In this document: positions 1 to 62,501 of the stretch, piece after piece | Layout: each line of letters opens with the position of its first letter | Numbering within the stretch: the first letter of the stretch is position 1 | Origin: a virus | Taxonomy: Duplodnaviria > Caudoviricetes | Length of the DNA stretch: 62,501 nucleotides | Virus record (IMG/VR): IMGVR_UViG_3300031772_000033 | Location: 1-62,501 of that record | Strand: one strand, 5' to 3' | Position numbers and translations under genes: made by a program | The notes under the pieces: generated by a model | Databases searched by the model: none | What the model was told of the DNA's origin: nothing | Seen by the model: the letters and a program-made list of their open reading frames with translations, nothing else

Positions 1-254
1 GGTTTCGGACACAACTTCACTTTATTAAGAGGCTATTAATGCTCAAAAAGATTCTCCTTTTCTCCTTCTTGTTTTGTGGTTTGGGTTGTTCTCAGGACGC
101 GGGGCCGAAAAGCCCCGCACCTGAGAGTGTTCCTTACGCACAATATCAGGAAACAAAAGACGCGCTCCACGATTACGTTTTAGAAAATCGCAGAGCCGCA
201 GAACTTAACAAAAAACTTATTAATGACATCAATGTTTTTGTCAATGAACTCAAA
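1..254. repeat. Terminal direct repeat, left copy (circular assembly overlap)
   Basis: Matches 62248-62501 except G127 vs C62374. Confidence 0.97.
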
Positions 255-359
255 GCAATAAAAACAGAAGATCCGGAACTCGACAAGGCATTGGCAAAAT
301 ATAACATTCAAAGAAATCCAGTCAAGTCAATCATTCCGCCTAAGCCAAAGGAAAAATAA
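39..359 (+). CDS. Exported or lipoprotein-like coiled-coil protein
   Basis: MLKK, hydrophobic stretch, GLG/C; follows the 61142 fibre-like gene on the circle. Confidence 0.6.
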   Translation: MLKKILLFSFLFCGLGCSQDAGPKSPAPESVPYAQYQETKDALHDYVLENRRAAELNKKLINDINVFVNELKAIKTEDPELDKALAKYNIQRNPVKSIIPPKPKEK

Positions 360-1072
360 TGGCAAGGTTTCCGTTCTGTGTAATAGAAGACGTTCAGCAA
401 CATAACCAGAGCAGGGCGACTTTTTCGGGAACTACTAAACCTACGTCTACGCAAGTTACGGCGTTCATGGACAATATCGCGGATGAAATAAAATCCATCG
501 CATCAACGTCTGGTTATAATATAAATAGTCTGCATGAAGTATCCGCGACCGTGGCTCTTGCTGTGACTACTGGAGCAAATAAGGCCGTAGTAGTTTCGAG
601 CACGGATGGATTTGTATTAGTTGACGATATACTAATGACCGGACTTACCGGAACTACGCGAGTTTGGCAAGTTACATATGTAACGGCTATAGTTCCTTCG
701 ACTAATACTATCACGCTTGCCAATGTTGCTACAGCCACGGATGCGGGAACTACTACTTTATATGTTTATAATTCAGCACTCAGGATTTTAAGGAATCTAA
801 ACGCGATTGGCGCGGCGGCGCAGGCGGAACAGGCGGCTTATCTCGGAACGTCTCAGGATAAATCCGAACATGCTGAAGCTCTTTGGATGCAATATTACGG
901 GAGTGAAGAAACACAGGGCGGACTTTGGGCGATCAAAAACATACCGAATTATCTGCTTGGTGCTACGGTTACTTCAAGTGCGGCGCATAGGGATACGATC
1001 ACAAGTTACGGTTCTGAACATTCAACCGATGACGATGTTGAGGCGGTTTTCACAAGAGAAACCGAATTTTAG
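359..1072 (+). CDS. Putative head-tail adaptor (Mu gp36-like) with inserted beta domain
   Basis: Position after the head module; N-terminal FCVIEDV...IADEIKSIAST.GY pattern; Thr/Val-rich insert. Confidence 0.55.
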   Translation: MARFPFCVIEDVQQHNQSRATFSGTTKPTSTQVTAFMDNIADEIKSIASTSGYNINSLHEVSATVALAVTTGANKAVVVSSTDGFVLVDDILMTGLTGTTRVWQVTYVTAIVPSTNTITLANVATATDAGTTTLYVYNSALRILRNLNAIGAAAQAEQAAYLGTSQDKSEHAEALWMQYYGSEETQGGLWAIKNIPNYLLGATVTSSAAHRDTITSYGSEHSTDDDVEAVFTRETEF

Positions 1073-10909: not shown

Positions 10910-12727
10910 ATGAAAAAATTAATTATCTTTTTGACATTTCTGCCCTTGTTTATTTTCGCACAAGGGCCATTCGGACATGGTATCAATAAGGATTCGACTT
11001 GGGCAGTAGTCGGAGTGGATACGTTGGAACCATTAAATAATTCTACAATTTACATGCAACATTTCACGGTAGACACGGCGGTTGTGCAAAAGTACATTCA
11101 AGAAAAACGTATTACTCGGGTGGATTCGCTGACCAGATGGGTGCGGGATGGAGATACGTTGACGATTGACGCAAGTAAAGATTTACGTTTGCTTTCGTTA
11201 CGTGTTGGCGGAGTAATGAAATTCCAGGTGGATTCAGCGGGGAATTCCATGACTGCCGGAAAGGTTACAACCAATGACTCTCTTGCTAATGTCAAAGGAA
11301 TCCGTACCGAAGGTATTAGTTTACTTAAAGGTAAGGTAACTACGAATGATTCGCTTGCAAATATTAAAGGAATCAGGACAGAAGGGATCTCCTTACTGAA
11401 AGGCAAGGTCACGGCCTCGGATTCAATCGTGGTTACGAAAGGTATCCGTAATGAAGGTCCAAATCTTTTCAAAGGCAAAACAATTCAACGTGATACATTG
11501 CAAGTCAATTCTTTTGAAAATGTAGGTAATGCGAATGCAGGTGCACTTGTTTCTCCCATGACAGTTACTACTAATGCAATTGGTACAATGTCCACTACGG
11601 CGGCCACGGCAAATGCTTATGGATTGTCTTTACGTAATATGACGCCTGCAATTAATGGTACGCAACAGGACAGTCCTCCTATTAGATTCAGAGGATATGG
11701 TTATGGCACTACTGCAAGTACAAGTCAAAGTGGGGATTGGCGTATATATAATCAGATGACACAGAGTACAGTTCCAGCGAGTAAGTTGATGTTTGACTAT
11801 TCAGCAAATAGTGCAGCTTATGTAAATGTATTTAATGTAAGAAAAGATGGACTTATATATTCAGCTTCAGATATTACTACAATTGGAGCATTAACGAGTT
11901 ATCCTGTTGTATCTTCATCTTCAACTGATGGCATTGTGGGCTATTCAAGTGCAGCGGCTTCTGCGGGCGGCACTATTAGAATGTCTCCGCGTGTTCGTCT
12001 AACCGCTAACGTCTGGGATTCTACCGCAACCGCCGCAAGCAAGACGCAGAACTTTACCCAAGAAGTCATCCCTGTCTCCGGTGGCGGTGGCGGTGGAGTC
12101 CCCGCTCCTTCTGCTTCAACCGCAAGACTGCGTTGGAGTTTTGACCATAATGGGGGTGGGTATAGTGAGATTCTTGCGTTGACTGGCGATGGGCGACTGA
12201 TAAAGACGAATGGTGCAACCCTCAACAATACAGGGTATAAACTCACAACCGTAAACTCAATAAGCGGGTGCAATAAAACAACCGTGACCTTTACAGCTTA
12301 TAGTTTGGCAATCACAGACGCTGGAGCGAACGGGGCTCATGGTTCAGTTAAACTTATTGATTTCCCCGAAGGCCATATCAAACTGATCGGAGCGCACCAA
12401 GTCCTTACGCTTACAAGAGTAGGTACGGCAATTGACGCTGACGCTGTTTTCGACGCAGGCATAGGATCGATAACTGCTGGCGTGGATAATGAGGAACTGG
12501 CTGGCACGGAAACCGAGATAACCGGAGTTGAGGACGAGGCTGTTCTTGCTGCCGGAACTCTTACTTTTGATACGCTGAACGGCGTTGACCAACTACTTGA
12601 TGGATCAGGAACTTCATCGGATGCGTGGCTTAATGTTGCTGTGGCTGCCGCTGACTGTTCTGGTAACGATGCGTTTTTAGTTACCGGAACCGTGACGATT
12701 ACGTGGGTATTACTTGGAGACGATTAA
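10910..12727 (+). CDS. Signal-peptide-bearing fibre-like protein
   Basis: Signal ending IFA/Q; 24-aa repeats [18 protein letters not shown]; beta-rich C-terminal domains. Confidence 0.75.
11258..11500 (+). repeat. 72-bp coding repeat (three copies plus a partial)
   Basis: Units start at 11258, 11330, 11402 and 11474; synonymous divergence between copies. Confidence 0.85.
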
Positions 12728-28081: not shown

Positions 28082-30051
28082 CAAGCAGGCAAGCCGATTT
28101 GATTCTGCAAGAACTTGACATTTATTCAATGCTCGAAAATACGGAAGAAGTTGATTGTTTGGCTGAAAATAATCCAGAATTACTCGATGCTTATAAAGCA
28201 ATGATTAAATTTGCAAAGCGTAAAGATAAGGGATAAGGAGTGAGAGATGATCAAACTGAAAATAACATGGAAAAAGTTTTCCGAAATATGCCCGCACTCT
28301 TACGATTACAACGGGAGACGATGCTTGATACCTCGACACAATTTAGCTTGTAGTGAAAAATGTACACAAAAAAATTGTCCGTTATTGGTAAGGGATAAGG
28401 AGTGAGACGATGACTTGGGCTAAACCCGATCTATACTACGGATTATACTGGTCAGGATTAAGCACAACCATTAAGAGGTTTTAAGGAAATGACCAATGAC
28501 GTGCGGCAGGCAAGCATAATGCTGTCCCTGAAGAGCCTCTGACGGATGCCAAGCATCTTGTTAAGCGCAACCCCTTGCCGAGAATTCCGGCTCGCACGTT
28601 TTCATTAACAGATTAAAGATGGAGGTTGAGATGACCGTTTTGGAATTTATTTTATACCCCGGACTGTTTACTGAATTACATGGCGGGAAGAAAGATGATA
28701 GAACTTCTGAATTGTTAAATAAGTTTGGCCGCGCACAACTTGGAATAGACGGAAATTGCGGGTTTGCGCTTTTGGGTGGAGATCTTCAAGAAGGAGAATC
28801 TGAATTTGTGGAAATAAAAGGCGATAAAATTGACGATCAATTAAGGGCTTGCAGTTTTGCATTAAACAAATTGCGAGAGCGCATTGATGCACCTGGTATG
28901 AGTTACTATTTTGGCCCAAGTCATCCGTACGGTAACTAACCCTACTCCGTAAGCGCGGGAGGGAGGAAAAGTGAGAAAAAATAAATGGTATGTATTACAA
29001 GATTCATATCATCTTGCCCTAATGGAAAGTCGTGAGTGCGGAGGTTGGACTGTGTGGCGGAGAATTTATATGCTAATAGCAAATACAATATATTATTATC
29101 AAGAACATTTTGAATGGCTAACAGAAAAACACGTGCGTTTTACTGGTGGAGGAAGAAATGAGTACAATAAATGTCCTCGCCGCTAAAATTATGTTACTTA
29201 CTATGATGATTTTTGTTGCATACCAAGAGGTGGCAAATAAAAAAATAAGCCACGATACATTAATAATCTGTTTAATAGTCATAATGTGTTTTTTGTCGCT
29301 TTTACAAGCCGTTACTCCATTGAAAAGCGCAACGAAGAAAAAAGTTTGCAGCATGTGCAAAGGCAAAAAAAAAGTTGATCTTGTCGGGCATGGCATAGGT
29401 CTCATGGGTGAGACGTGCCCGAAGTGTCACGGGACCGGGAAACGAAAGGGGAAAGCGTGAAAGCTTGTATGGGTTGTAAGTACGCCGTATGGGATCTAAC
29501 AAAAGTCGGTAGGCTTCATCCGTCTGGTGATGGACATTGTGAATATGCGTATAAATTACCGGAACTGCCAAATTCAAGGTATTGGATTATAAGCGATCCG
29601 AGACCAGCGGGCGGATATATATCAAGAAAAAAGGAGTATCCAAACCATTGCCCATATTATATGCGTCAACCCGCCCAATCAGAGAGCAAGGAGAAACCAT
29701 GAAACGCGTATTAATTTTCGCTGGAATGCAATTAAAAAAATTGGTAATTGTTACTACCGTAATAAGTCTCTTTATTGGATGGGTATATCTATTTGCACTT
29801 TCCCTGAAGCATGATTTATATATTCTCTCGGCCGCTTGGGTGCTACTTTCTTTTATTGCAATTTTTGGGAAGGAAATTACTGAGCGGATTCAATCTGAGT
29901 GGCACAAGGCTGGGGAGATCGAAAAGAAATGGAGCAAGAAATGAAAATTGAGATTGTATTATTTATTATAAGTATGACGGCTTTTTTGGTTTGGGGCTAT
30001 TGTTCTTATCTTTTATTGATAAGTGATCGTAAAAATTGGAGGAAGCAAGAA

Positions 30052-30360
30052 ATGAAACGTATATTGACCATTACTCTGCTTGCCACTATGCTGGCGGGAT
30101 GTAAGAAAGTACGGATAGAACAGGAAGTTAAAACTCAAAGTTTTATAAATTGTACTTATCGAGTTTCGACATGGCTTTGGATTTACGATTTTCCTTGGTG
30201 TTTAGGTAGTACAATCGAACACTCTTTTTATAATTATAATGTTACTAAAGATAGTGTTTGCGCCGTAAAGGTGAGACAACTTAAAGCAATGCTTCCGTAT
30301 TATATAAAAGCAAAACAGATACTCAAAGACGGTATTGATCCGTGTAAGGAGAGACCATGA
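30052..30360 (+). CDS. Lipoprotein
   Basis: MKRILTITLLATMLAG/C lipobox; GGAGG upstream. Confidence 0.7.
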   Translation: MKRILTITLLATMLAGCKKVRIEQEVKTQSFINCTYRVSTWLWIYDFPWCLGSTIEHSFYNYNVTKDSVCAVKVRQLKAMLPYYIKAKQILKDGIDPCKERP

Positions 30361-30761
30361 AGAAGCTTATAATCTACATTTTTTTGTTGATGTTCTCAGG
30401 ATGTGCATGGGGACAGATTCTAAGCGATCCAGGCATTAATGACACGCGAGAGAATATTCAAACAGAGAATACTCAGATAAAGATATTTCGTGCCAATGAT
30501 CCTTATGATATGGGCCGCTCGTTCGAGCGTTGGCTTAGACTTTCCGACCTTGTGGATTATTGGGATGAGTACAAGGAATGGACGAAAGTGAACCCAATAA
30601 AATATGCAACTGGTACGTGGACCTGTGTTTTGGATTCTATGAGCAACGGTCGAATAATAGGGAGAAATTATCCAGATTCTTGCACGATGCAAAGACCGAT
30701 TAGTGCGGAAGATTTTATTGAGAACTTTCTACGCGGCAAACTGCGAGAGGCAAAGCCATGA
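30357..30761 (+). CDS. Exported hypothetical protein
   Basis: Signal ending AWG/Q (or SG/C lipobox). Confidence 0.65.
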   Translation: MKKLIIYIFLLMFSGCAWGQILSDPGINDTRENIQTENTQIKIFRANDPYDMGRSFERWLRLSDLVDYWDEYKEWTKVNPIKYATGTWTCVLDSMSNGRIIGRNYPDSCTMQRPISAEDFIENFLRGKLREAKP

Positions 30762-44116: not shown

Positions 44117-44773
44117 ATGCTTAATCACGGTTATGGCATTCTTAAAAGACTCAAAAAAGGTATACGGATTTATATCTTCGTAACGTTTCATTGTCAATTG
44201 AATTGTTCGTATTGCAGTAATAAGCCATTCGAAGGCGACGAATTAGAGCCCGATCCACAAATGAATTTTGTTCCCGAAATGGATTGGCGGAAATGGGTTG
44301 ACTTGATTGAGACTTTTCCGGTGCGCGTGCGCGAGATTGTGATCGAAGGCGGTGAAACTTTACTTTATCCGGGAATTGGAAATCTTATCAATGCCTTAAT
44401 TGCAAGTGGGCGATTCGTAACATTATATACAAATCTTGAATTACTCAATGATGATTTAGGGATTGAACCAAGCAATAAGTTGAGGATTCAAGCATCGGCA
44501 CATCTGCAAGGACGGAATGAAATTTCTAACGAATTTTGTAAGGCATACACCGAAAATGAAAATAAATACAGAATCGATGTTGATGTTTTGGGAAATGAAA
44601 CAAGAAAAACAAATGGATTAGTACGTTTTAATAAAATCCTATCTCCGAAAGAATTGCGTGAAAGTCCCGAATGGACGGCAAAACAATTCAGGATATTGCC
44701 AAATGGTGAAATACATATAAGCAAAGGTCGTTTATTATCCGCCGTTTACGAAAAAGAATATGAAACTTTATAA
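44117..44773 (+). CDS. Radical SAM protein
   Basis: CQLNCSYC, EGGETLL, YTN. Confidence 0.85.
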   Translation: MLNHGYGILKRLKKGIRIYIFVTFHCQLNCSYCSNKPFEGDELEPDPQMNFVPEMDWRKWVDLIETFPVRVREIVIEGGETLLYPGIGNLINALIASGRFVTLYTNLELLNDDLGIEPSNKLRIQASAHLQGRNEISNEFCKAYTENENKYRIDVDVLGNETRKTNGLVRFNKILSPKELRESPEWTAKQFRILPNGEIHISKGRLLSAVYEKEYETL

Positions 44774-45575
44774 TAAATTCACGAAATTTAAAAGTATTTT
44801 CAAATTGTCCGTTATTTATCGGTTCAGTCCGGTTAAGATTTTCCGTGCAATTAAGGAAATTATACGGTTTATAAATGATTTCACATTATTCGATAATCAA
44901 CGTAAACAGTCAACATATAAATTTCCATACGGAAATTTGAATCCCTGTATGGGCGAACGGGACAGAGACGGGATTAATTCGAAGGAGTATTTTTATCAGG
45001 ATTTTCATGTTGCAAAAAGAATACTTGAAAACAAACCAGAGAAACATGTTGATATCGGATCGCGATTTGATGGATTCATTACTCATTTGTGCCTATTCCG
45101 TGAGGTTGAAGTTTTCGATATCCGGCCCTTGACCGTGACTTTGCCAAATTTGAAATTTATTCAGGCTGACATGATGGAATCTATAAGTAAATCATTTCTT
45201 GATTATGCCGATTCAATTTCATGCCTTCACGCCTTGGAACATTTCGGCCTTGGCAGGTATGGAGATCCGATTGATTATGATGGACACTTAAAGGGACTTG
45301 ATAATATTTACAGGATTTTAAGGAAAGGTGGAAAATTTTATTTATCCGTGCCAATAGGCGAAGATAGGATTGAGTTTAATGCTCATCGAGTATTTTCGCT
45401 TGGTTATCTCTATGCCTTATTCGAAGATAAATATAAAATTAATAATTTCTCATATATAGATAATACCGGCCCGTTAGGAAATTTTCATGAAAATATTTTT
45501 GTATTTGCGCATGATATAAATAATAATTTTGGTATTGTTCAGGGATGCGGAATATTTGAAATGACCAAATTATGA
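44760..45575 (+). CDS. DUF268-like SAM-dependent methyltransferase
   Basis: YFYQD, HVDIGSR.DGF, SCLHALEHFGLGRYGDPID, FNAHR. Confidence 0.85.
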   Translation: MKLYNKFTKFKSIFKLSVIYRFSPVKIFRAIKEIIRFINDFTLFDNQRKQSTYKFPYGNLNPCMGERDRDGINSKEYFYQDFHVAKRILENKPEKHVDIGSRFDGFITHLCLFREVEVFDIRPLTVTLPNLKFIQADMMESISKSFLDYADSISCLHALEHFGLGRYGDPIDYDGHLKGLDNIYRILRKGGKFYLSVPIGEDRIEFNAHRVFSLGYLYALFEDKYKINNFSYIDNTGPLGNFHENIFVFAHDINNNFGIVQGCGIFEMTKL

Positions 45576-45955
45576 AATATTTTATATTATTTATTATGTT
45601 ATTAATAAGCATGGTGAATGCACAAGTTATGTGCAAAAAATCGTGGGATTCTTGTGATGGAGCATTTTTCAAATATGATAAATCCGAACATTTAATCGGT
45701 TCCGCAATTTTATATCAAGGTTTTCGAACATATAATTGGGAACCTAAAAAGCGATTATTGTATTCTGTTTTATCTGGTTTTCTTTGGGAGGTTAAAGATT
45801 CGTTAATTTCTTATAAGGATTTTGGTAGAATGGGTGGTGATGGATTTGATTATAAGGATTTTTTGGCCGATTGTGCGGGTATATTCTTATCATATGAATT
45901 AGAAAAGATTCATATTAATATAACATTTAGATTATACCTGGAAAAGGAAATTTAA
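45572..45955 (+). CDS. YfiM/VanZ-like exported or membrane protein
   Basis: Signal ending VNA/Q; DKSEH, WEVKD, GF...D..AD..G. Confidence 0.65.
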   Translation: MKYFILFIMLLISMVNAQVMCKKSWDSCDGAFFKYDKSEHLIGSAILYQGFRTYNWEPKKRLLYSVLSGFLWEVKDSLISYKDFGRMGGDGFDYKDFLADCAGIFLSYELEKIHINITFRLYLEKEI

Positions 45956-46911
45956 TGTTTCAGCATTTGCAAATTTGCCCGACATGGCGCTGTAATCTCA
46001 AATGTCCTACTTGTGATTCATGGCAAAGGGATCAAAAGATCGAACTTTCCAAGGGGCAGATTGATCAAATTGCAAAAGATGAATTATTTGGAAGAGTTAA
46101 ACATCTAATCATCGAAGGCGGGGAACCGTTTACATTTACTAATTTGGATTATTTCATTGACAAAATGTCACGGGTATACGATAAGATAGCCATTATCACA
46201 AGCGGTTATTTATACGCAAGAATCGGCATGTTTTTAGAGAAATATGCGGGGATCAAAAATCGTTTGCGATTTGTAGTTTCGCTCAATGGGATAGATAAAT
46301 ATCACGACGAAACAAGGGGAAAAGACGGGGTATATGCCCATGTTATAAATACAATCGCATTATTACAAAGTCATGGATATGCTTTTAATTTGCAATTTCT
46401 TCCGACTGAAACGAATCAAGGCCAGTATTGGGAGGTAAAAGAATTTGCGGATAAATTAGGTGTGAGCGTAAATGTCTGTCATCCCTCAAAGATCGGCAAA
46501 TATGCAATTGAATCTACCGAGGGGATGTTGAAAGAATATGATATCATCAAGGCTGAACAGGCAAAGTCTTTACCTTGGAGAAGTAGATGGGAATTTGAAT
46601 GTTTCAATGACATGAAGAAACGCAAAAAATTCATGCCATGTTGGGCTGGAAAGAAAATGATTTATATTGATCCAAGAGGAACAATTCGACCTTGCGCCAT
46701 TAACGAGGAAATGTCATTGGGAATTATTTATGATCATGAAATTTTTATGAAAAGCGGAGAAAGATATCAAGATGAACTTGATTTAATCCCTGAATATTGC
46801 CAATACCGAACTGGGCAGGTTTGTAATCAGACATATATTGGATATACGCTTCATCGCAAACCATTTTATCTATTAAAATGGAGGCTCGGAAAATGGCTAA
46901 GAAAAAAGTAG
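45955..46911 (+). CDS. Radical SAM/SPASM-twitch protein
   Basis: CNLKCPTC, GGEPF, SLNG...HD..RG, CWAG....IDP.G...PC. Confidence 0.9.
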   Translation: MFQHLQICPTWRCNLKCPTCDSWQRDQKIELSKGQIDQIAKDELFGRVKHLIIEGGEPFTFTNLDYFIDKMSRVYDKIAIITSGYLYARIGMFLEKYAGIKNRLRFVVSLNGIDKYHDETRGKDGVYAHVINTIALLQSHGYAFNLQFLPTETNQGQYWEVKEFADKLGVSVNVCHPSKIGKYAIESTEGMLKEYDIIKAEQAKSLPWRSRWEFECFNDMKKRKKFMPCWAGKKMIYIDPRGTIRPCAINEEMSLGIIYDHEIFMKSGERYQDELDLIPEYCQYRTGQVCNQTYIGYTLHRKPFYLLKWRLGKWLRKK

Positions 46912-46917
46912 AATTCA

Positions 46918-47664
46918 ATGATAATCATTAAGATAGTTGGCGGTCTCGGAAATCAGTTGTTTCAGTATGCTTACGGCCTTGCACTTGCGAAACGGAACAA
47001 TACCGATCTCTACCTTGATTTGTCATGGTACGAGACAGGCAAGGATTTGGAGTGGTTCGGGAAGCACAACGATAGGCCATTTCTTCTGAGCGGACTGTTT
47101 GGCGTTCATGTTGTATCACCGTTTAATATTTTAAAATATATTAGAAAAGTAAAAGAAACGCAATTTCAATTTGATCAAAGTCTTTATGATTTAGGCAACA
47201 ATCATTATATCAGGGGGTATTTTCAAAGCGAGCAATACTTCGATAATATCAAGGATGAGATGAAATCTATATCCAGATTTGGAGAATTTTACGATATAAG
47301 AAGACGGATTAAAGAGGGAGGTTTTGATACAGCTATTCATGTCCGTCGCAGTGATTATCTGACCAATCCAGTTAATTACGTACTTCCAGAAACATATTAT
47401 CGAGAAGCCAAGGAAATACTGGAAAGTAAAAAGGTTATAGTTTTTTCAGATGATCCAGATTATTCCGATTGGAACTCCATTGATCCCATTCATGACATGA
47501 TTGCGATGTCATGCTTCCCGAAGATCATTACGGCAAATAGTTCATATTCATGGTGGGCCGCATGGCTTTCGGATGCGCAAGTTGTATGTCCCAAGAAATA
47601 CTTCGCAACTGGACATGATAAGAATATGAGTGATTTCTGGCCAAAAACATGGATTCAAATATGA
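46918..47664 (+). CDS. GT11 alpha-1,2-fucosyltransferase-like protein
   Basis: GGLGNQLFQYA, GYFQS..YF, HVRRSDY, FSDD, NSSYSWWAAWL. Confidence 0.92.
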   Translation: MIIIKIVGGLGNQLFQYAYGLALAKRNNTDLYLDLSWYETGKDLEWFGKHNDRPFLLSGLFGVHVVSPFNILKYIRKVKETQFQFDQSLYDLGNNHYIRGYFQSEQYFDNIKDEMKSISRFGEFYDIRRRIKEGGFDTAIHVRRSDYLTNPVNYVLPETYYREAKEILESKKVIVFSDDPDYSDWNSIDPIHDMIAMSCFPKIITANSSYSWWAAWLSDAQVVCPKKYFATGHDKNMSDFWPKTWIQI

Positions 47665-48374
47665 ACCCGAAAGTCTCAATCATAATAACCAATTTTCGAC
47701 ATGATGCTTATTTGCCATTTGCTGTGATGTCGGTATTGAACCAGACCTTTAAAGATTGGGAATTGATAATCGCAAACGATAATCCAGATTCTAAAACGCC
47801 TTATTATGATCGGATAGACAAAAGAATATTAGTCATGGATGCGAAAAAAAATATTGGACAGCCAGCACGTATTAACTTTTGCATTCCGTGGTTGCGCGGA
47901 GAATTCACGGCTTTTCTGGATGCAGATGATTATTGGCTACCGTGGAAGTTAAATTACCAACTCGGATTTGATTTTGATATGACATACGGGGATTGTCTCG
48001 TAAAGCAAGCAGACGGAAAGACGCGATTGGTACATACAAAGCCCTGGGACAGGGATATGGTTTTACATAAACAATGCTTGACAACTTTTTCAAGTATAAT
48101 TGTGAAAACCGAACTACTGAAACGATGTCCTTTTCCCGAAGACATTGGAAATGGAAATGATAGGGTATGGACTTTAGATCTTTCGTTATTGACGGACAAT
48201 ATTTTATATACACCCTTGCCGCTTTTCGTTTACAGGGACTATACATCACAGTTCAGAAAACAGTTCAATTTTAATCCAATTACGAAATTTAATACTTTAT
48301 TGAAACGAGTTGAGCGGAGAAAGAAAAACAAAGTGCTTCAGGATTACATTAACAGGCGATATGATGTTAAGTAA
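47661..48374 (+). CDS. GT2 glycosyltransferase
   Basis: VSIII, SVLNQT..DWELII.ND, FLDADD. Confidence 0.92.
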   Translation: MNPKVSIIITNFRHDAYLPFAVMSVLNQTFKDWELIIANDNPDSKTPYYDRIDKRILVMDAKKNIGQPARINFCIPWLRGEFTAFLDADDYWLPWKLNYQLGFDFDMTYGDCLVKQADGKTRLVHTKPWDRDMVLHKQCLTTFSSIIVKTELLKRCPFPEDIGNGNDRVWTLDLSLLTDNILYTPLPLFVYRDYTSQFRKQFNFNPITKFNTLLKRVERRKKNKVLQDYINRRYDVK

Positions 48375-48947: not shown

Positions 48948-49312
48948 ATGAATAAATTGATATGGTTTTTACTTTTTATAGTTATATTGGGTATTCCTTT
49001 AATAGCTATTATTTTGGCTTTACTGGAATTGTAAAAAAGAACGTTTTAAACCAAGAGGAGAGACAAATGAAGACAGGTGACACGGTAAAACTGAAAGACG
49101 GGTTGAAGGTCGGACGGAAATACGGGGAAATAGAATTATTGGAAAGCATGATCTTCGAAGGTGAAAAGAAAATCGAAACAGATAAGGAAGGCGATATTTA
49201 TATTGATGGTTGGTACTATTCTATCGAAATGTTGGATATATTAACAGGGTAGAGGTTAAACGTTCTTATTTATATGGGGAAGAGTGATAACTCACAAGGG
49301 AATAAAGACTCG

Positions 49313-50470
49313 ATGGTACAATACCAATTAAAACTTAAACTAAACAAAAAACAAGAAACCACACTTAATGAATGGTTGTGGAATCTTACTGGAGTTTGGA
49401 ATTGGGCTATTCGTAAAATAGAACTTGATGCTCAATATGGAATATATTACAGTAAATTCACTTTTCAAAATATACTTGCGAATCATAGCAAAAAAATTTG
49501 TATTCCAAGCCATGTTTTAGGTGGTATACTTTCACAGGCACATCTCGCATGGTCTCGATGCTTTAAAAGGAAAGCAAAAAAACCACACTTTAAGGGACAA
49601 CGAAACAAATTAAATAGTATCCCATTTCCCGATCCCATTAGATCACCCAAAGAAAACCACATTACTCTTTTGGGTATTGGAAAGATACGTTTTCATAAAC
49701 AGAAATTACCAGAAGGAAAAATTAAATGTGGCCGGATTATTAAAAGGGCAAGCGGGTGGTATTTATGTGTTTTTATTGATGCCGAACGAAAATCGATTGA
49801 ACGCAAAGCATTTGGACGAATAGGCATTGATCCGGGATTTAAAAATCTTTTAACATTATCAACCGGCGAAAAAATAGAACATCCAAGAGAATTAGAGGCA
49901 ACAGAAAAACGTTTAGGACAAGCACAAAGAGGACACAATAAAAAATTAGCATCACGTCTTTCGGAACGCAGAGCCAATAGAACGAAAGACAGGAATCATA
50001 AACTTTCACATAAACTTATCGGTGAAAATATTTTTATTGCATTTAGTGCGGACAAACATCAGAACATAGCAAGAAAATTCGGGAAGTCAGTTTCCAGTTC
50101 TTCCCATTATCAGTTAAGACAGATGCTTTCCTACAAGAGCCATTCAGGCGGTACGGAATACGTTGAGACTGATTCGAGAAATTCCACCAAGACCTGTTCG
50201 AACTGTGGGGCCTTAACCGGTCCTACGGGCTTGAGCGGCTTGTCGGTAAGGCAATGGGTGTGTGTTGCTTGTGGGGCAGAACATGACCGCGATATAAATG
50301 CGGCACGGAATACGCTCATTGTCGGGGCCGGAATGGCCCACGAGGTGCATAATGTAAAAGCATTATGCAGTCCGAAATCTTATGCAACTGGGTTCAAATC
50401 TTTCGCGCTTGCGGGTGCGGATTCGTTAGTATTGAGCCCATGCGCAAAGGAAGTTCAATTATTCGCCTGA
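49313..50470 (+). CDS. tnpB: TnpB (IS200/IS605 RNA-guided nuclease family), RuvC-II Glu apparently absent
   Basis: N-terminal VWNWA, P.FK, GWY, GIDPG, TCSNCG, W.C..CG..HDRDINAARN; IAFSAD in place of IxxED. Confidence 0.9.
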   Translation: MVQYQLKLKLNKKQETTLNEWLWNLTGVWNWAIRKIELDAQYGIYYSKFTFQNILANHSKKICIPSHVLGGILSQAHLAWSRCFKRKAKKPHFKGQRNKLNSIPFPDPIRSPKENHITLLGIGKIRFHKQKLPEGKIKCGRIIKRASGWYLCVFIDAERKSIERKAFGRIGIDPGFKNLLTLSTGEKIEHPRELEATEKRLGQAQRGHNKKLASRLSERRANRTKDRNHKLSHKLIGENIFIAFSADKHQNIARKFGKSVSSSSHYQLRQMLSYKSHSGGTEYVETDSRNSTKTCSNCGALTGPTGLSGLSVRQWVCVACGAEHDRDINAARNTLIVGAGMAHEVHNVKALCSPKSYATGFKSFALAGADSLVLSPCAKEVQLFA

Positions 50471-58720: not shown

Positions 58721-59119
58721 ATGGCAGAAGGTGGATATTTTCTCGATACAACCTTCAAAGCCACCGCGACTCTTGCCGCTTACCAGTATCATGCTATGGT
58801 TTTGAGTGCCGCGAATACCGTCAATGTTGCCGGTGCGAATGCGATTGTAATTGGCATCTTACAGAACAAACCCGACGCCGCAGGTGAAGCGGCCATTGTA
58901 AGGGTTTGCGGTGAATCAAAATTGGTTATTGGTGAACGGATGGATCTCGGAACTATGATAACCTCTAAATCGGACGGTCACGGGGAAAGAGCGGATGCAA
59001 ATGCAGAACATTGCTTCGCTATTGCCCTGGAGTCTGGTACTACGGATGGCGATATTGTTTCGGTCCTACTGAATCATTGCGATGCGTATGCTACAGACGA
59101 CACCGCTCCGACCGCATAA
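58721..59119 (+). CDS. Capsid decoration/cement protein (DUF2190-like), paralog 1
   Basis: IGILQN.P.AAGEAA.V...G.SKL; position before the capsid gene. Confidence 0.8.
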   Translation: MAEGGYFLDTTFKATATLAAYQYHAMVLSAANTVNVAGANAIVIGILQNKPDAAGEAAIVRVCGESKLVIGERMDLGTMITSKSDGHGERADANAEHCFAIALESGTTDGDIVSVLLNHCDAYATDDTAPTA

Positions 59120-59130
59120 AGGAGGAAATC

Positions 59131-59532
59131 ATGGCAGAAGGTCATTATGGTTTTGATAAAGCTTTCAAGGCATATGGAGACTTGTCGAGTTATCAATATC
59201 ACTTTGTGAGTCTATCATCTTCGGGAACCGTGAATCTGTCCAGTAATAACGGACGGGCTATCGGTATCCTGCAAAACGTACCCAATGCGGCTGGCGAGGA
59301 TGCGATTGTTCGCCTTCTCGGAGTTTCCAAGCTTGCCGCAGGGGAAGCGATTGACGAAGGTACAATGCTTACGTCCAAATCGGACGGACACGGCGAGGAA
59401 GCGGATGCCGCGAGTGAATGGTATTCCGCCATTGCGATTCAGTCCGCTGCCGGCACTTCCGGCGAACTTATTTCAGTGTTGCTCAGACATGGCGATTCTT
59501 ACGCGGCTGACACCACAGAACCTACGGCTTAG
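59131..59532 (+). CDS. Capsid decoration protein, paralog 2
   Basis: MAEG start; same motifs as 58721. Confidence 0.8.
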   Translation: MAEGHYGFDKAFKAYGDLSSYQYHFVSLSSSGTVNLSSNNGRAIGILQNVPNAAGEDAIVRLLGVSKLAAGEAIDEGTMLTSKSDGHGEEADAASEWYSAIAIQSAAGTSGELISVLLRHGDSYAADTTEPTA

Positions 59533-59540
59533 GAGGAAAC

Positions 59541-59927
59541 ATGGCTGAAGGATCAACTGGTTTAAACATTACTTTCAAGGCCGCGCGCGATTTGTCTTCA
59601 TATCAGTATCATTTCGTTTCCGTTTCCGCCGCGAATACGGTTGACTATTCCGGCGATAAGGGACGATGTATTGGTATTTTGCAGAACGCCCCAAATGCAG
59701 CGGGTGAGGCAGCGGTTGTCATGGTGGAAGGTATTTCCAAGCTCCGCGCTTACGGCGCGGTTAACCGTTTGGAAAAACTTATGTCTTCCGCACAATCGGG
59801 ATATGCGGCGCATGGTGAAGTTGCCGCTACCGCAAGTACCTGGGTTGGCGCGATTGCCTTGGAAACCGGAACAGCATCGGACGATCTTCTGACCGTGCTG
59901 ATTACCGGATTTGAATTACAAGCTTAA
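59541..59927 (+). CDS. Capsid decoration protein, paralog 3
   Basis: MAEG start; same motifs as 58721. Confidence 0.8.
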   Translation: MAEGSTGLNITFKAARDLSSYQYHFVSVSAANTVDYSGDKGRCIGILQNAPNAAGEAAVVMVEGISKLRAYGAVNRLEKLMSSAQSGYAAHGEVAATASTWVGAIALETGTASDDLLTVLITGFELQA

Positions 59928-60896: not shown

Positions 60897-60935
60897 TCTA
60901 ATACGGGGGAGGCAACTCCCCCACATTGGAGGAAT

Positions 60936-61145
60936 ATGAAGTATAAAGTTTTAAGACCCGTAATAGCAAAAAAGAAACTCTATGCGATAGGGAGCACGGT
61001 GGATATGAAAGAATCTCCGGTCCACGTTGCATTGGGGTATCTTGAAGTTATCGGGGAAAGCGAACCAGCCGCAGAACCTAATTTTGAGGCTGAACCGGAA
61101 CCTAAAATTCCAAAGGCAACGGTTAAACGTGGAGGCAAAGAATGA
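60936..61145 (+). CDS. Small head-associated protein
   Basis: GGAGG RBS after the capsid hairpin (60905-60922). Confidence 0.65.
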   Translation: MKYKVLRPVIAKKKLYAIGSTVDMKESPVHVALGYLEVIGESEPAAEPNFEAEPEPKIPKATVKRGGKE

Positions 61146-62275
61146 AAAAATATTTGATTCTATTCATGGTTTTCGTTGTGGGTTATGCAATCGCTCAACC
61201 CACGGTCGTCCAGAATGCGCAAGTTTTTTCAAGCAAGGTGTATCTACGCGGCGGGATAACGGCATACAGAGGCATGACACTTTCCGCAAACAACTCCTAT
61301 AATAATCTGTTTGTGGTTTCCGATGCGGATTCGTTCAAGGTGCGGATGTTTCAGTATCTTTATCCCCTTGAAATCGAAATTGGGAACTCTCAGATTTTTG
61401 CCGTGGACTCGACTGGCATCGCTCTTCCCAAGGCCCTTAACGTAACGGGCAACAGTGGACTTGCGAACATTTTTGTTGTATCCGATGGCGATTCCACTAA
61501 AATAAGAATGTACAAGTATCTATATCCGTTGGAAATCGAAATCGGAAACACACAGAAGGCCGCGATTGATTCCGCCGGTAATGCTGTTTTTGCCGGGACC
61601 GTTTCGGCGGCTGCATTCAGTCCCACGGCCACGTCCGATATTCAATCGAGATATATTTTGATTCTTTCGGACGGAGATTCTACTACTATCGATCCGAGAT
61701 CGGCTCAATATATGTTCAGGATCGGTCTTGGCGGGGCGAAGAAATTTGCGGTTGATAGTGCGGGTAATGCTTATGCTGTTTCGTTGCAAACTCCGACGCT
61801 TAACGGTGTGTCTAACGCAATGGCCGTCACTACTAAAATGACTATTGCAAACAACTATCCACTTATTACGACCAGTTCGATTACGGCTGATTCAGTCAAT
61901 ATCACCACTCTGGCCGGTTCAGCGGGTGCAATGGCGATCAATACCAAGATGACGATTGCCAATAATTACCCGTTCGTAACCAACAGCACCATTACGGCGG
62001 ATTCCATTATCGTTCCGGTAATCGCCGGAGTTGCAAACGCTATGGCAGTTAATGCCAAACTGAATATCGCGGCGAATTATCCGCTTGTATCGAGTTCTTC
62101 AATCGCAGCGGATACTCTCAAGGCAACATCGGGAAATGTTCAAATTATTGACATTGACACCGTGGCAACTGCCGGTCTGGTTAAGCGATGGTTAAAACTT
62201 ACCGTTACCAAAGCGACGGGAGCGGGAAAACCTGAAACTTATTATATGGTTTCGGACACAACTTCACTTTATTAA
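61142..62275 (+). CDS. Signal-peptide-bearing repeat (head-fibre-like) protein
   Basis: Signal ending AIA/Q; three SD.DS...(V/I)DS.G modules and three K..IA.NYP....I.AD(S/T) repeats. Confidence 0.8.
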   Translation: MKKYLILFMVFVVGYAIAQPTVVQNAQVFSSKVYLRGGITAYRGMTLSANNSYNNLFVVSDADSFKVRMFQYLYPLEIEIGNSQIFAVDSTGIALPKALNVTGNSGLANIFVVSDGDSTKIRMYKYLYPLEIEIGNTQKAAIDSAGNAVFAGTVSAAAFSPTATSDIQSRYILILSDGDSTTIDPRSAQYMFRIGLGGAKKFAVDSAGNAYAVSLQTPTLNGVSNAMAVTTKMTIANNYPLITTSSITADSVNITTLAGSAGAMAINTKMTIANNYPFVTNSTITADSIIVPVIAGVANAMAVNAKLNIAANYPLVSSSSIAADTLKATSGNVQIIDIDTVATAGLVKRWLKLTVTKATGAGKPETYYMVSDTTSLY

Positions 62276-62501
62276 GAGGCTATTAATGCTCAAAAAGATT
62301 CTCCTTTTCTCCTTCTTGTTTTGTGGTTTGGGTTGTTCTCAGGACGCGGGGCCGAAAAGCCCCGCACCTGAGACTGTTCCTTACGCACAATATCAGGAAA
62401 CAAAAGACGCGCTCCACGATTACGTTTTAGAAAATCGCAGAGCCGCAGAACTTAACAAAAAACTTATTAATGACATCAATGTTTTTGTCAATGAACTCAA
62501 A
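62248..62501. repeat. Terminal direct repeat, right copy
   Basis: Matches 1-254 with one mismatch. Confidence 0.97.

Follow-up and report, generated by a model that had tools for sequence, protein, structure and literature searches.

Does a tailed phage send a capsid-adjacent fibre through the periplasm of its host and have it glycosylated there? The question is raised by the IMG/VR virus record IMGVR_UViG_3300031772_000033 (62,501 bases, the whole of which was analysed and is referred to here as the window), in which an open reading frame (ORF) shortly downstream of the major capsid gene is predicted to encode a 377-amino-acid (aa) protein with a signal peptide; we refer to this protein as the target. 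A first-pass annotation described it as a head-fibre-like protein saturated with O-glycosylation sequons and proposed that it is exported so that the host can coat it with glycans. We give an even chance to the reading that the target is a Sec-exported homotrimeric fibre, glycosylated by the periplasmic O-glycosylation system of the host.

According to this reading, the target would be a late structural-module protein of a siphovirus-like phage of ~62.2 kb from sediment. Signal peptidase I would cut after A-I-A and expose Gln20, the "Q-rule" N-terminus of Bacteroidota, which would then be cyclised to pyroglutamate. In the periplasm, the general O-glycosylation system of the host would glycosylate up to 10-11 D-(S/T)-hydrophobic sites that lie 15-45 residues apart, which would amount to ~30 glycans per trimer. 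More tentatively, the N-terminal part might dock the fibre on the phage head after lysis merges the compartments.

Sequons in the target and in exported ORFs

The target contains 17 Asp residues, and 11 of them are followed by Ser or Thr, exactly in the order that the first-pass annotation had listed (DSF63, DST89, DST117, DSA143, DST179, DSA205, DSV250, DSI287, DTL324, DTV339 and DTT372). The strict sequon, defined in passages of PMC8550257, PMC8729774 and PMC12871550 as D-(S/T)-(A/I/L/V/M/T), fits 10 of the 11 sites; DSF63 fits only an extended motif that a section of PMC8729774 reports for Porphyromonas gingivalis and Tannerella forsythia. Residue shuffles of the target give an expectation of 1.62 +/- 1.20 strict sequons against the 10 observed (~six-fold), and none of 20,000 shuffles reached 10 sequons or 11 D-(S/T) pairs, so the enrichment persists under the shuffling control that had been proposed for it. 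The repeat pattern is also as described: each of the three A modules carries two D-S sites in the same register (63/89, 117/143 and 179/205), and the three B repeats end in A-D-(S/T)-(V/I/L), namely ADSV, ADSI and ADTL. Given their placement in repeats, the ten sites cannot be counted as independent events. The major capsid protein, with which the first-pass annotation had contrasted the target, has 24 Asp residues and 2 sequons versus 1.45 expected. These counts confirm what had been observed on the target.

The target begins with an ATG at 61142 and ends with a stop codon at 62273-62275. A GGAGG six bases upstream supports this ATG as the start, and with it the inclusion of the signal peptide, and Gln directly follows the predicted cleavage site, which is the feature known as the Q-rule. 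Signal-peptide calls here and below were made with our own hydrophobicity rules and by eye.

We divided the 111 non-overlapping + strand ORFs of the window (minimum length 50 aa) according to predicted export. The hydrophobicity filter flagged 14 ORFs, and 9 of these were kept by eye as signal-peptide or lipoprotein ORFs (starting at 39, 7952, 10327, 10910, 12714, 13681, 30357, 45572 and 61142); the 5 that resembled membrane helices (27668, 29146, 29899, 40028 and 48684, with 2 sequons in total) were placed in the group of other ORFs. The 9 exported ORFs hold 37 sequons versus 11.4 expected (3.2-fold; 0 of 300 shuffles), and the 8 that remain when the target is set aside hold 27 versus 10.0 (0 of 300 shuffles). 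The 102 other ORFs hold 35 versus 35.0, and signal-less structural proteins hold 20 versus 16.2; neither value is significant. Control motifs were flat in the exported set of the window, whether E, N or G took the place of D before [ST]-hydrophobic, [AG] took the place of [ST] or the motif was reversed, and D-[ST] followed by a non-permitted third residue occurred 16 times versus 16.4 expected.

For replication, a profile of the conserved N-terminal domain (A2) found 8 viral loci, of which six were used; L044 and L047 were left out as sharing several predicted proteins with L041 and L045, and two more stretches of the used records were added. In these 8 stretches of 6 related phages, the predictor flagged 10 ORFs, and the 8 signal-peptide proteins of at least 150 aa hold 34 sequons versus 13.7 expected (0 of 300 shuffles). 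The 129 other ORFs hold 99 versus 101.5, and control motifs were again flat; this group includes two family members that the predictor missed (185 aa, 2 versus 1.8; 335 aa, 4 versus 2.4). As a negative control, signal-bearing ORFs in 400 kb of two Acidobacteriota genomes hold 29 sequons versus 23.8 and 30 versus 33.4. The comparison of signal-bearing with other ORFs, which the first-pass annotation had suggested as a check, therefore places the enrichment in signal-peptide ORFs, both in the window and in related phages: in the phage genomes examined, the sequon excess follows the export signal.

Within the window, much of the remaining exported set lies in the tail-fibre region, where five consecutive ORFs carry signal peptides (Table 1). 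Their sequon counts, observed/expected, are 9/3.7 (785 aa), 3/0.7 (154 aa), 12/3.4 (605 aa), 1/0.9 (~314 aa) and 0/0.2 (127 aa). Several of the 12 sequons of the 605-aa protein occupy the same position of a 24-aa repeat, and this protein shares an A3-like module with the target (E 2.9e-5). Gln follows the hydrophobic core in 4 of these 5 signal peptides, and it follows the signal in 6 of the 7 non-lipoprotein signal peptides of the window (by eye).

The window also contains a glycan-modifying cluster at 44117-48374, with two radical-SAM proteins, a DUF268 methyltransferase, a GT11 protein (fucosyltransferase family), a GT2 protein and a signal-peptide protein at 45572-45955; it could alter the host surface polysaccharide or the lipid-linked O-glycan itself. 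We consider it very improbable that the phage's own GT11 and GT2 glycosylate virion proteins in the cytoplasm and that the D-S/T motif is incidental. The presence of both enzymes speaks for such a route, and excerpts of mycobacteriophage genome notes (PMC11256854) link two phage glycosyltransferases to capsid glycosylation. However, the cluster is separated from the target by 13 kb and sits in a region of non-structural genes, it is equally likely to act on the host surface polysaccharide or lipid-linked glycan, and phage-encoded glycosylation explains neither the signal peptide nor the restriction of the excess to exported proteins.

Trimeric fibre model and the structural share of the excess

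The AlphaFold2 monomer model of the target is poor, with a predicted local distance difference test (pLDDT) value of 50.2 and a predicted template modelling (pTM) score of 0.22, and it was too poor for a fold search; the C-terminal domain is its best-modelled part (pLDDT 68-77 per block). A three-copy model of aa 100-377 scored 0.81 (runs 0.79-0.82) versus 0.00 for the best of three controls, with partner pLDDT of at least 77 and agreement between runs in at least 96% of contacts. The predicted trimer interface is almost continuous over residues 206-340, with the B repeats as its core. The mark for the trimer score was calibrated on two-copy jobs, in which 20 of the 30 pair-solved proteins attained it, as did 1 of the 23 single-chain ones; the three-copy job with its own alignment differs from that calibration, and the score is a model confidence rather than a measurement. 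In the ESM Atlas, the clusters nearest to the target in features and in structure all represent phage fibres (named for Pfam Phage_fiber_2, Gp34_trimer, Phage_tail_fib and Peptidase_S74), at scores under the tool's own bar (0.89; TM 0.31-0.44). The model supports the view that the target is an intertwined homotrimer, i.e., a fibre.

A fibre of this kind offers another source for the motifs: D-(S/T)-hydrophobic might be a turn or strand-start motif of a repeating trimeric fibre fold, to which no glycan is added. We regard this purely structural explanation as rather unlikely, although part of the evidence favours it. The long tail fibres of T4 (gp34-37), which are cytoplasmic, contain 19 sequons versus 11.3 expected (1.7-fold) and also prefer a hydrophobic third residue (D-[ST]-non-hydrophobic, 14 versus 18.0); D-[AG]-hydrophobic is raised across the target's family (296 versus 204); and sites in repeats share descent. 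Other signal-less tail and fibre proteins gave mixed values: the B124-14 tail fibre has 8 sequons versus 6.5 and its 724-aa neighbour 3 versus 2.3, three large tail proteins of Flavobacterium phage 11b have 5 versus 7.9, and the tail-tip-like proteins of L053 and L054 have 4 versus 5.3 and 10 versus 4.9, respectively. Pooled, the signal-less proteins hold 49 sequons versus 38.2 (1.3-fold), whereas the signal-bearing sets hold 71 versus 25.1 (2.8-fold). The preference for Ser or Thr after Asp differs in the same direction, at 33 versus 29.6 in T4 (1.1-fold), 53 versus 28.1 in the exported set of the window (1.9-fold) and 11 versus 3.5 in the target (3.1-fold), and N-[ST]-hydrophobic is not enriched in the window or in related phages. 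Fibre architecture accounts for part of the sequon signal, but not all of it.

Conservation of the sites bears on the same alternative. The alignment of the target with its homologues has 8 shared sites, at which 12-15 of 13-15 sequences retain D-[ST]; the third residue varies inside the extended permitted set (12/13 to 15/15 sequences), while the flanking columns are often much less conserved. Among 15 sequences, D117-S118, D143-S144 and D205 do not vary, and S206 and D179 hardly do; D339 occurs in all of them and D372 in 14 of 15, both with S/T swaps. Ser and Thr interchange at sites 179, 324, 339 and 372. Asp is never replaced by Glu at the 8 sites, and it is replaced by Asn once, at site 179 in the most distant member; in the 14 closest sequences, neither residue takes its place at any of them. 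Asx turns usually accept Asn, and the strictness for Asp therefore argues against a purely structural role.

Across the wider family, 57 members have a length of 272 aa or more, and 13 of them show sequon enrichment at p<0.01; 10 of these 13 are close relatives of the target and hence not independent. Some large signal-bearing relatives are free of sequons (P0030, 0 versus 6.8 expected; P0057, 0 versus 5.3), and two further members (P0047 and P0035) avoid D-[ST]; in one example among these four proteins, Ser or Thr follows only 3 of 72 Asp residues. Control motifs are depleted in none of the 57 members. The pattern in these four looks like motif purging, the opposite of what the target displays, and a total loss of sequons is hard to explain if the motif is structural. 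P. gingivalis gingipains lack the motif entirely, which the authors of PMC8729774, in the passage concerned, read as selection against glycosylation.

Family, gene order and the link to the virion

A word-indexed search returned 14 homologues of the target, all with an N-terminal signal peptide; signal-less homologues that keep the motifs, which the first-pass annotation had named as evidence for a structural role, were not found among them in any genuine case. A profile search of 1.84 billion representatives returned 68 proteins at E up to 0.001, most of which share the signal peptide and a ~50-aa N-terminal domain only and then continue into unrelated C-terminal parts (up to 1,466 aa). An N-terminal hydrophobic signal is present in 70 of 78 family members, the target included; the other 8 are fragments, truncated N-termini or filter misses (by eye). 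The target itself gave nothing significant in Pfam, PHROGs or NCBIfam, a best E of 0.16 against PDB sequences and no TBLASTN match in 50,697 phage records; head fibre and decoration families were likewise without a sequence or profile match in Pfam, PHROGs, NCBIfam and PDB sequences, and Pfam held no family match for any of 10 family members tested. The family is undescribed, with no Pfam, PHROG or NCBIfam model; it is modular, signal-bearing and located beside the capsid gene in several lineages. Type IX secretion cargo was considered and rejected, as the target has no C-terminal sorting domain and no NCBIfam or Pfam match at E up to 0.05 or 0.1.

Genome scans added little. A metagenome scan confirmed 1 of 533 candidate stretches, a single 1.8-kb contig. 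Among sequencing runs, a sediment metagenome that is probably the source was the sole one listed, with no RNA run. With A1 as the query, 0 of 29 candidates were confirmed in a GTDB scan that had no genome with a known match as control; A1 and the capsid protein were each found in 0 of 5 Acidobacteriota genomes, and A2 gave 0 matches in 301, in both cases with no positive-control genome, so these three results are uninformative.

At 10 loci, the family gene is located just 3' of the major capsid gene or of the best candidate for it, and two types of capsid gene are represented; the capsid gene was assigned by family match in the window only, and elsewhere by similarity or by position and size. 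In L003, the order is capsid gene, 64-aa ORF, homologue and lipoprotein. In L041-L048, blastp shows no similarity between the protein at the capsid position and the capsid protein of the window, and the family match comes directly after the gene at that position and before an adaptor-like gene where the locus extends that far (the family ORF of L045 was absent from our gene calls). The GC content of the 10 loci ranges from 35 to 59%. In the target, a short N-terminal segment lies between the signal peptide and the A modules; in this segment, the target and P0003 differ from relatives of the P0002-P0013 type that share the target's A and B modules. A backbone-specific N-terminus combined with exchangeable distal modules has the look of a virion fibre, as far as comparison of two backbone types can suggest.

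An alternative that we find doubtful, though credible, is that the target is exported and glycosylated but is not part of the virion; the trimer would reside in the envelope, in vesicles or in debris together with the neighbouring lipoprotein and act as a receptor mask, a decoy or a means of superinfection exclusion. Signal-bearing non-virion proteins are encoded among the structural genes of other phages (Lom and Bor of lambda, Llp of T5 and Cor of phi80 and N15), which counts in its favour. Export would also keep the target topologically apart from cytoplasmic capsids, and thus from their assembly, until lysis, and a lipoprotein gene lies 3' of the family gene both here and in L003. Furthermore, the portion of PMC10367356 that treats P. 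gingivalis prophages suggests that their Q-rule proteins of unknown function may modify the outer membrane. Against a non-virion role, the position after the capsid gene is kept in 10 loci across that range of GC content, unlike in typical morons; the target has no GC break, no promoter of its own and a predicted translational coupling; and, as in virion fibres, the N-terminal domain varies with the type of capsid gene and the distal modules are common to both types.

The tail-fibre region also bears on whether exported fibres reach the virion. All ORFs at the receptor-binding position of the window have signal peptides, which leaves two options: exported fibres are incorporated into the virion, or this phage lacks any recognisable receptor-binding protein; some exported fibres should thus be virion parts. 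The C-terminal domain of the 785-aa protein matches SGNH-esterase proteins of Vibrio and Microcystis phages, and the C-terminus of the 605-aa protein matches a protein encoded beside a Pseudomonas phage tail fibre gene; the homologues of these domains that were examined, one from a Pseudomonas and one from a Microcystis phage, i.e., from phages of other phyla, are both without a signal peptide, which likewise argues against a non-virion role. Related phages have signal-bearing proteins downstream of the tape measure too, while Bacteroides phage B124-14 and Flavobacterium phage 11b have no such proteins. Judging from the signal peptides of its tail-fibre-region proteins, the phage seems to route its fibres, as a class, via the periplasm. 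The wider claim that a group of tailed phages sends both capsid-adjacent and tail-tip fibres via Sec, that the host adds pyroglutamate and dense O-glycans and that the fibres are mounted at lysis is, in our estimation, distinctly unlikely.

The features of the window are given in Table 1. Nearly all genes are on the + strand. The last 254 bases of the record (62248-62501) repeat bases 1-254 with a single mismatch at overlap base 127; because both record ends share these 254 bases, the genome looks circular or terminally redundant, at ~62.25 kb, and it is probably complete, despite the record class of linear and a completeness estimate of 66%. The target is placed within the late structural operon, with capsid genes on one side and connector genes on the other; a site scan found no promoter-like or terminator-like site that separates it from the operon. 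Based on the ATGA overlap and the strong ribosome-binding site, the target is predicted to be translationally coupled to the 69-aa ORF upstream, which has no Pfam or PHROGs family match.

Table 1. Positions of features in the window (single numbers are starts)
Feature	Position	Strand	Basis or remark
Lipoprotein-like ORF, 106 aa, L-G-C lipobox	62286 onward (62286-62501 = start); full copy 39-359	+	Record ends overlapping
237-aa ORF	359-1072		Without family match
Neck1-like protein	1303		
Tail terminator	1819		
Two major-tail-like proteins	2242, 2640		
Tape measure	3793		
Five consecutive tail-fibre-region ORFs with signal peptides: 785, 154, 605, ~314 (collagen-like) and 127 aa	7952-14064	+	
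TnpB/IS605-family gene, Cas12f1-like TNB domain	49274-50470		
Terminase	52420		
Mu-type portal	54573		Pfam/PHROGs searches
Mu-like protease/scaffold	57250		Pfam/PHROGs searches
Three tandem cement-like paralogues, 128-133 aa	58721, 59131, 59541 (58721-59927)		phrog_673
Major capsid protein, 316 aa	59946-60896	+	phrog_1005 major head protein, E 1.1e-66
GC-rich hairpin, 7-bp stem, GCAA loop, without T run	60905-60922	+	Read from sequence
69-aa ORF, stop overlaps target start (ATGA)	60936-61145	+	
Shine-Dalgarno-like GGAGG	61131-61135	+	5' of target ATG
Target ORF, 377 aa	61142-62275	+	
Signal peptide, aa 1-19	61142-61198	+	Two Lys, hydrophobic core, A-I-A then Gln20
Three ~50-aa A modules, aa 52-101, 106-155, 168-217	61295-61792 (linkers included)	+	
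Three 37-aa B repeats, aa 218-254, 255-291, 292-328	61793-62125	+	
C-terminal beta-rich domain, aa 329-377 + stop	62126-62275	+	Sequons DTV339, DTT372

Counterparts of the target's neighbours occur elsewhere. L003 has its 64-aa ORF at the same place as the 69-aa ORF, a 105-aa counterpart of the lipoprotein-like ORF 3' of the target homologue, and cement-like paralogues as well; one of the three paralogues in the window reaches the cut-off of Pfam Phage_cement_2. Flavobacterium phage 11b (L056) has an 88-aa lipoprotein-like ORF at 12286-12552, between the capsid gene and the head-tail adaptor, which echoes the lipoprotein after the target. The hairpin in Table 1 lies directly after the stop codon of the capsid gene and was not called by the terminator scan; it may be a transcript-stabilising or attenuating element. 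A possible lysis cassette occupies 29146-30761, with small membrane proteins first (by eye; PHROG matches are weak). Within it, at 29899-30761, a 153-aa protein with an N-terminal membrane helix overlaps a 134-aa lipoprotein by 4 nucleotides, a spanin-like layout. A spanin pair formed by the target and its lipoprotein was considered and rejected by eye: a spanin-like pair is encoded in the cassette, and the target, at 377 aa, is beta-rich and built of repeats.

Host indicators and known systems

Several points weigh against the reading of the target as an exported fibre glycosylated by a Bacteroidota-type host system, in addition to the T4 and D-[AG] values and the topological separation given above. 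Every sequon-rich exported protein found here is fibre-like, so that compartment and fold are confounded. Gene order is the single line that points to attachment to the head or capsid, and all signal-peptide calls depend on our hydrophobicity rules. The indicators of host phylum conflict, and a Bacteroidota host with an O-glycosylation system is a possibility. Shine-Dalgarno-like motifs precede 49 of the 111 genes (44%), and 28-60% in related loci, versus a background of 9-16%; the Bacteroidota phages used as controls are at or below background (B124-14, 12 of 64, about 18-19%; 11b, 3 of 56, 5%). The Bacteroidota promoter box TAnnTTTG shows no excess in intergenic DNA (1 versus 1.8). The closest genome relatives of the TnpB protein (61-71% identity) are in Acidobacteriota metagenome-assembled genomes (12 of 13 close matches, 14 loci), which have 52-58% GC versus 40% for the phage copy and often hold several copies per genome. 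The bin labels of phage-sized contigs from three relatives disagree (Terriglobia, Neomegalonema and Williamwhitmania).

Other indicators fit Bacteroidota. In 58 of 70 relatives (50 of 62 distinct N-termini), the first polar residue that follows the hydrophobic core is Gln, the sequon excess is confined to exported proteins, and the GC content of the phage is 41%. Passages of PMC10653852 give Gln after the signal peptide as ~71% phylum-wide and up to 88%, and describe it as "exclusively" Bacteroidetes; by a crude measure, Gln after the core also reached about a third in our Acidobacteriota sample. Neither the GT11 protein, whose best bacterial relatives are at most 37% identical and belong to several phyla, nor the capsid protein, at most 32% identical to phages of many phyla, points to a host. 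The indicators might be reconciled by a host from a sister phylum or from a class of Bacteroidota other than Bacteroidia; a portion of PMC12871550 names Fibrobacterota as similarly motif-enriched. The doubts over the host (Shine-Dalgarno use, the promoter box and the TnpB relatives) also favour a structural origin of the motif: the Acidobacteriota sample has no general sequon excess, so an excess in phages of such a host would be structural.

Known substrates of O-glycosylation in Bacteroidota (Bacteroides fragilis, T. forsythia, P. gingivalis and Flavobacterium johnsoniae) resemble the target in being exported, with a predicted signal, and in having the sequon in a soluble region. Unlike them, the target is phage-encoded, is a repeat-built fibre and has far denser sites (10 in 358 mature residues). 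According to passages of PMC8729774 and PMC12871550, glycosylation occurs on non-cytoplasmic proteins only. The relevant sections of the latter describe the sites of exported proteins as "generally nearly fully substituted" and state that motifs introduced by engineering become glycosylated. DSI, DTV, DST and DTL, all of which occur in the target, are among the sites mapped directly in P. gingivalis in the part of PMC8729774 that covers them. The word "phage" is absent from the review PMC12871550.

The nearest precedent comes from P. gingivalis prophages ("Nixviridae", Matrishin et al. 2023), in which passages of PMC10367356 describe five proteins of unknown function with Q-rule signal peptides; excerpts of PMC10367356 and PMC10653852 read these signals as an adaptation to the host secretion system. 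Like the target, these are phage genes whose signal peptide exposes an N-terminal Gln, and the terms "glycosylation" and "tail fiber" are absent from the text of PMC10367356.

The genes of phage head fibres and decoration proteins (phi29 gp8.5, T4 Hoc and the cement proteins at 58721-59927) resemble that of the target in lying beside the major capsid gene, and the target's predicted trimeric fibre, lineage-specific N-terminal part and exchangeable distal modules extend the likeness. To our knowledge, known head fibres have no signal peptide and are assembled in the cytoplasm. With trimeric phage tail fibres, the target has the intertwined homotrimer model in common but differs in matching no hidden Markov model. 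Freeman et al. are said to have reported in 2023 that virions of mycobacteriophages Che8 and Corndog are glycosylated by phage-encoded glycosyltransferases. The outcome there, a glycan coat, would be the same, but it is produced by phage enzymes in the cytoplasm, whereas we propose the host's periplasmic system for the target. No description of exported or host-O-glycosylated tailed-phage fibres was found in the open-access literature searched. From the proposal made in the first-pass annotation, export, sequon enrichment, fibre character and a position in the head module are supported, whereas a Bacteroidota host, glycosylation by it and attachment to the capsid are conjectural.

A signal-bearing architecture in both the head and the tail modules is unusual. 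If the target is indeed an exported fibre glycosylated by its host, phages would use the periplasmic protein-glycosylation machinery of the host to coat their own fibres. One step of virion assembly would then take place outside the cytoplasm, as a periplasmic branch, and the particles would be dressed in host glycans, which would bear on phage stability and on immune or protease evasion in sediments and guts. A sequon excess together with Gln after the signal peptide in exported phage proteins would also provide a rule for host prediction.

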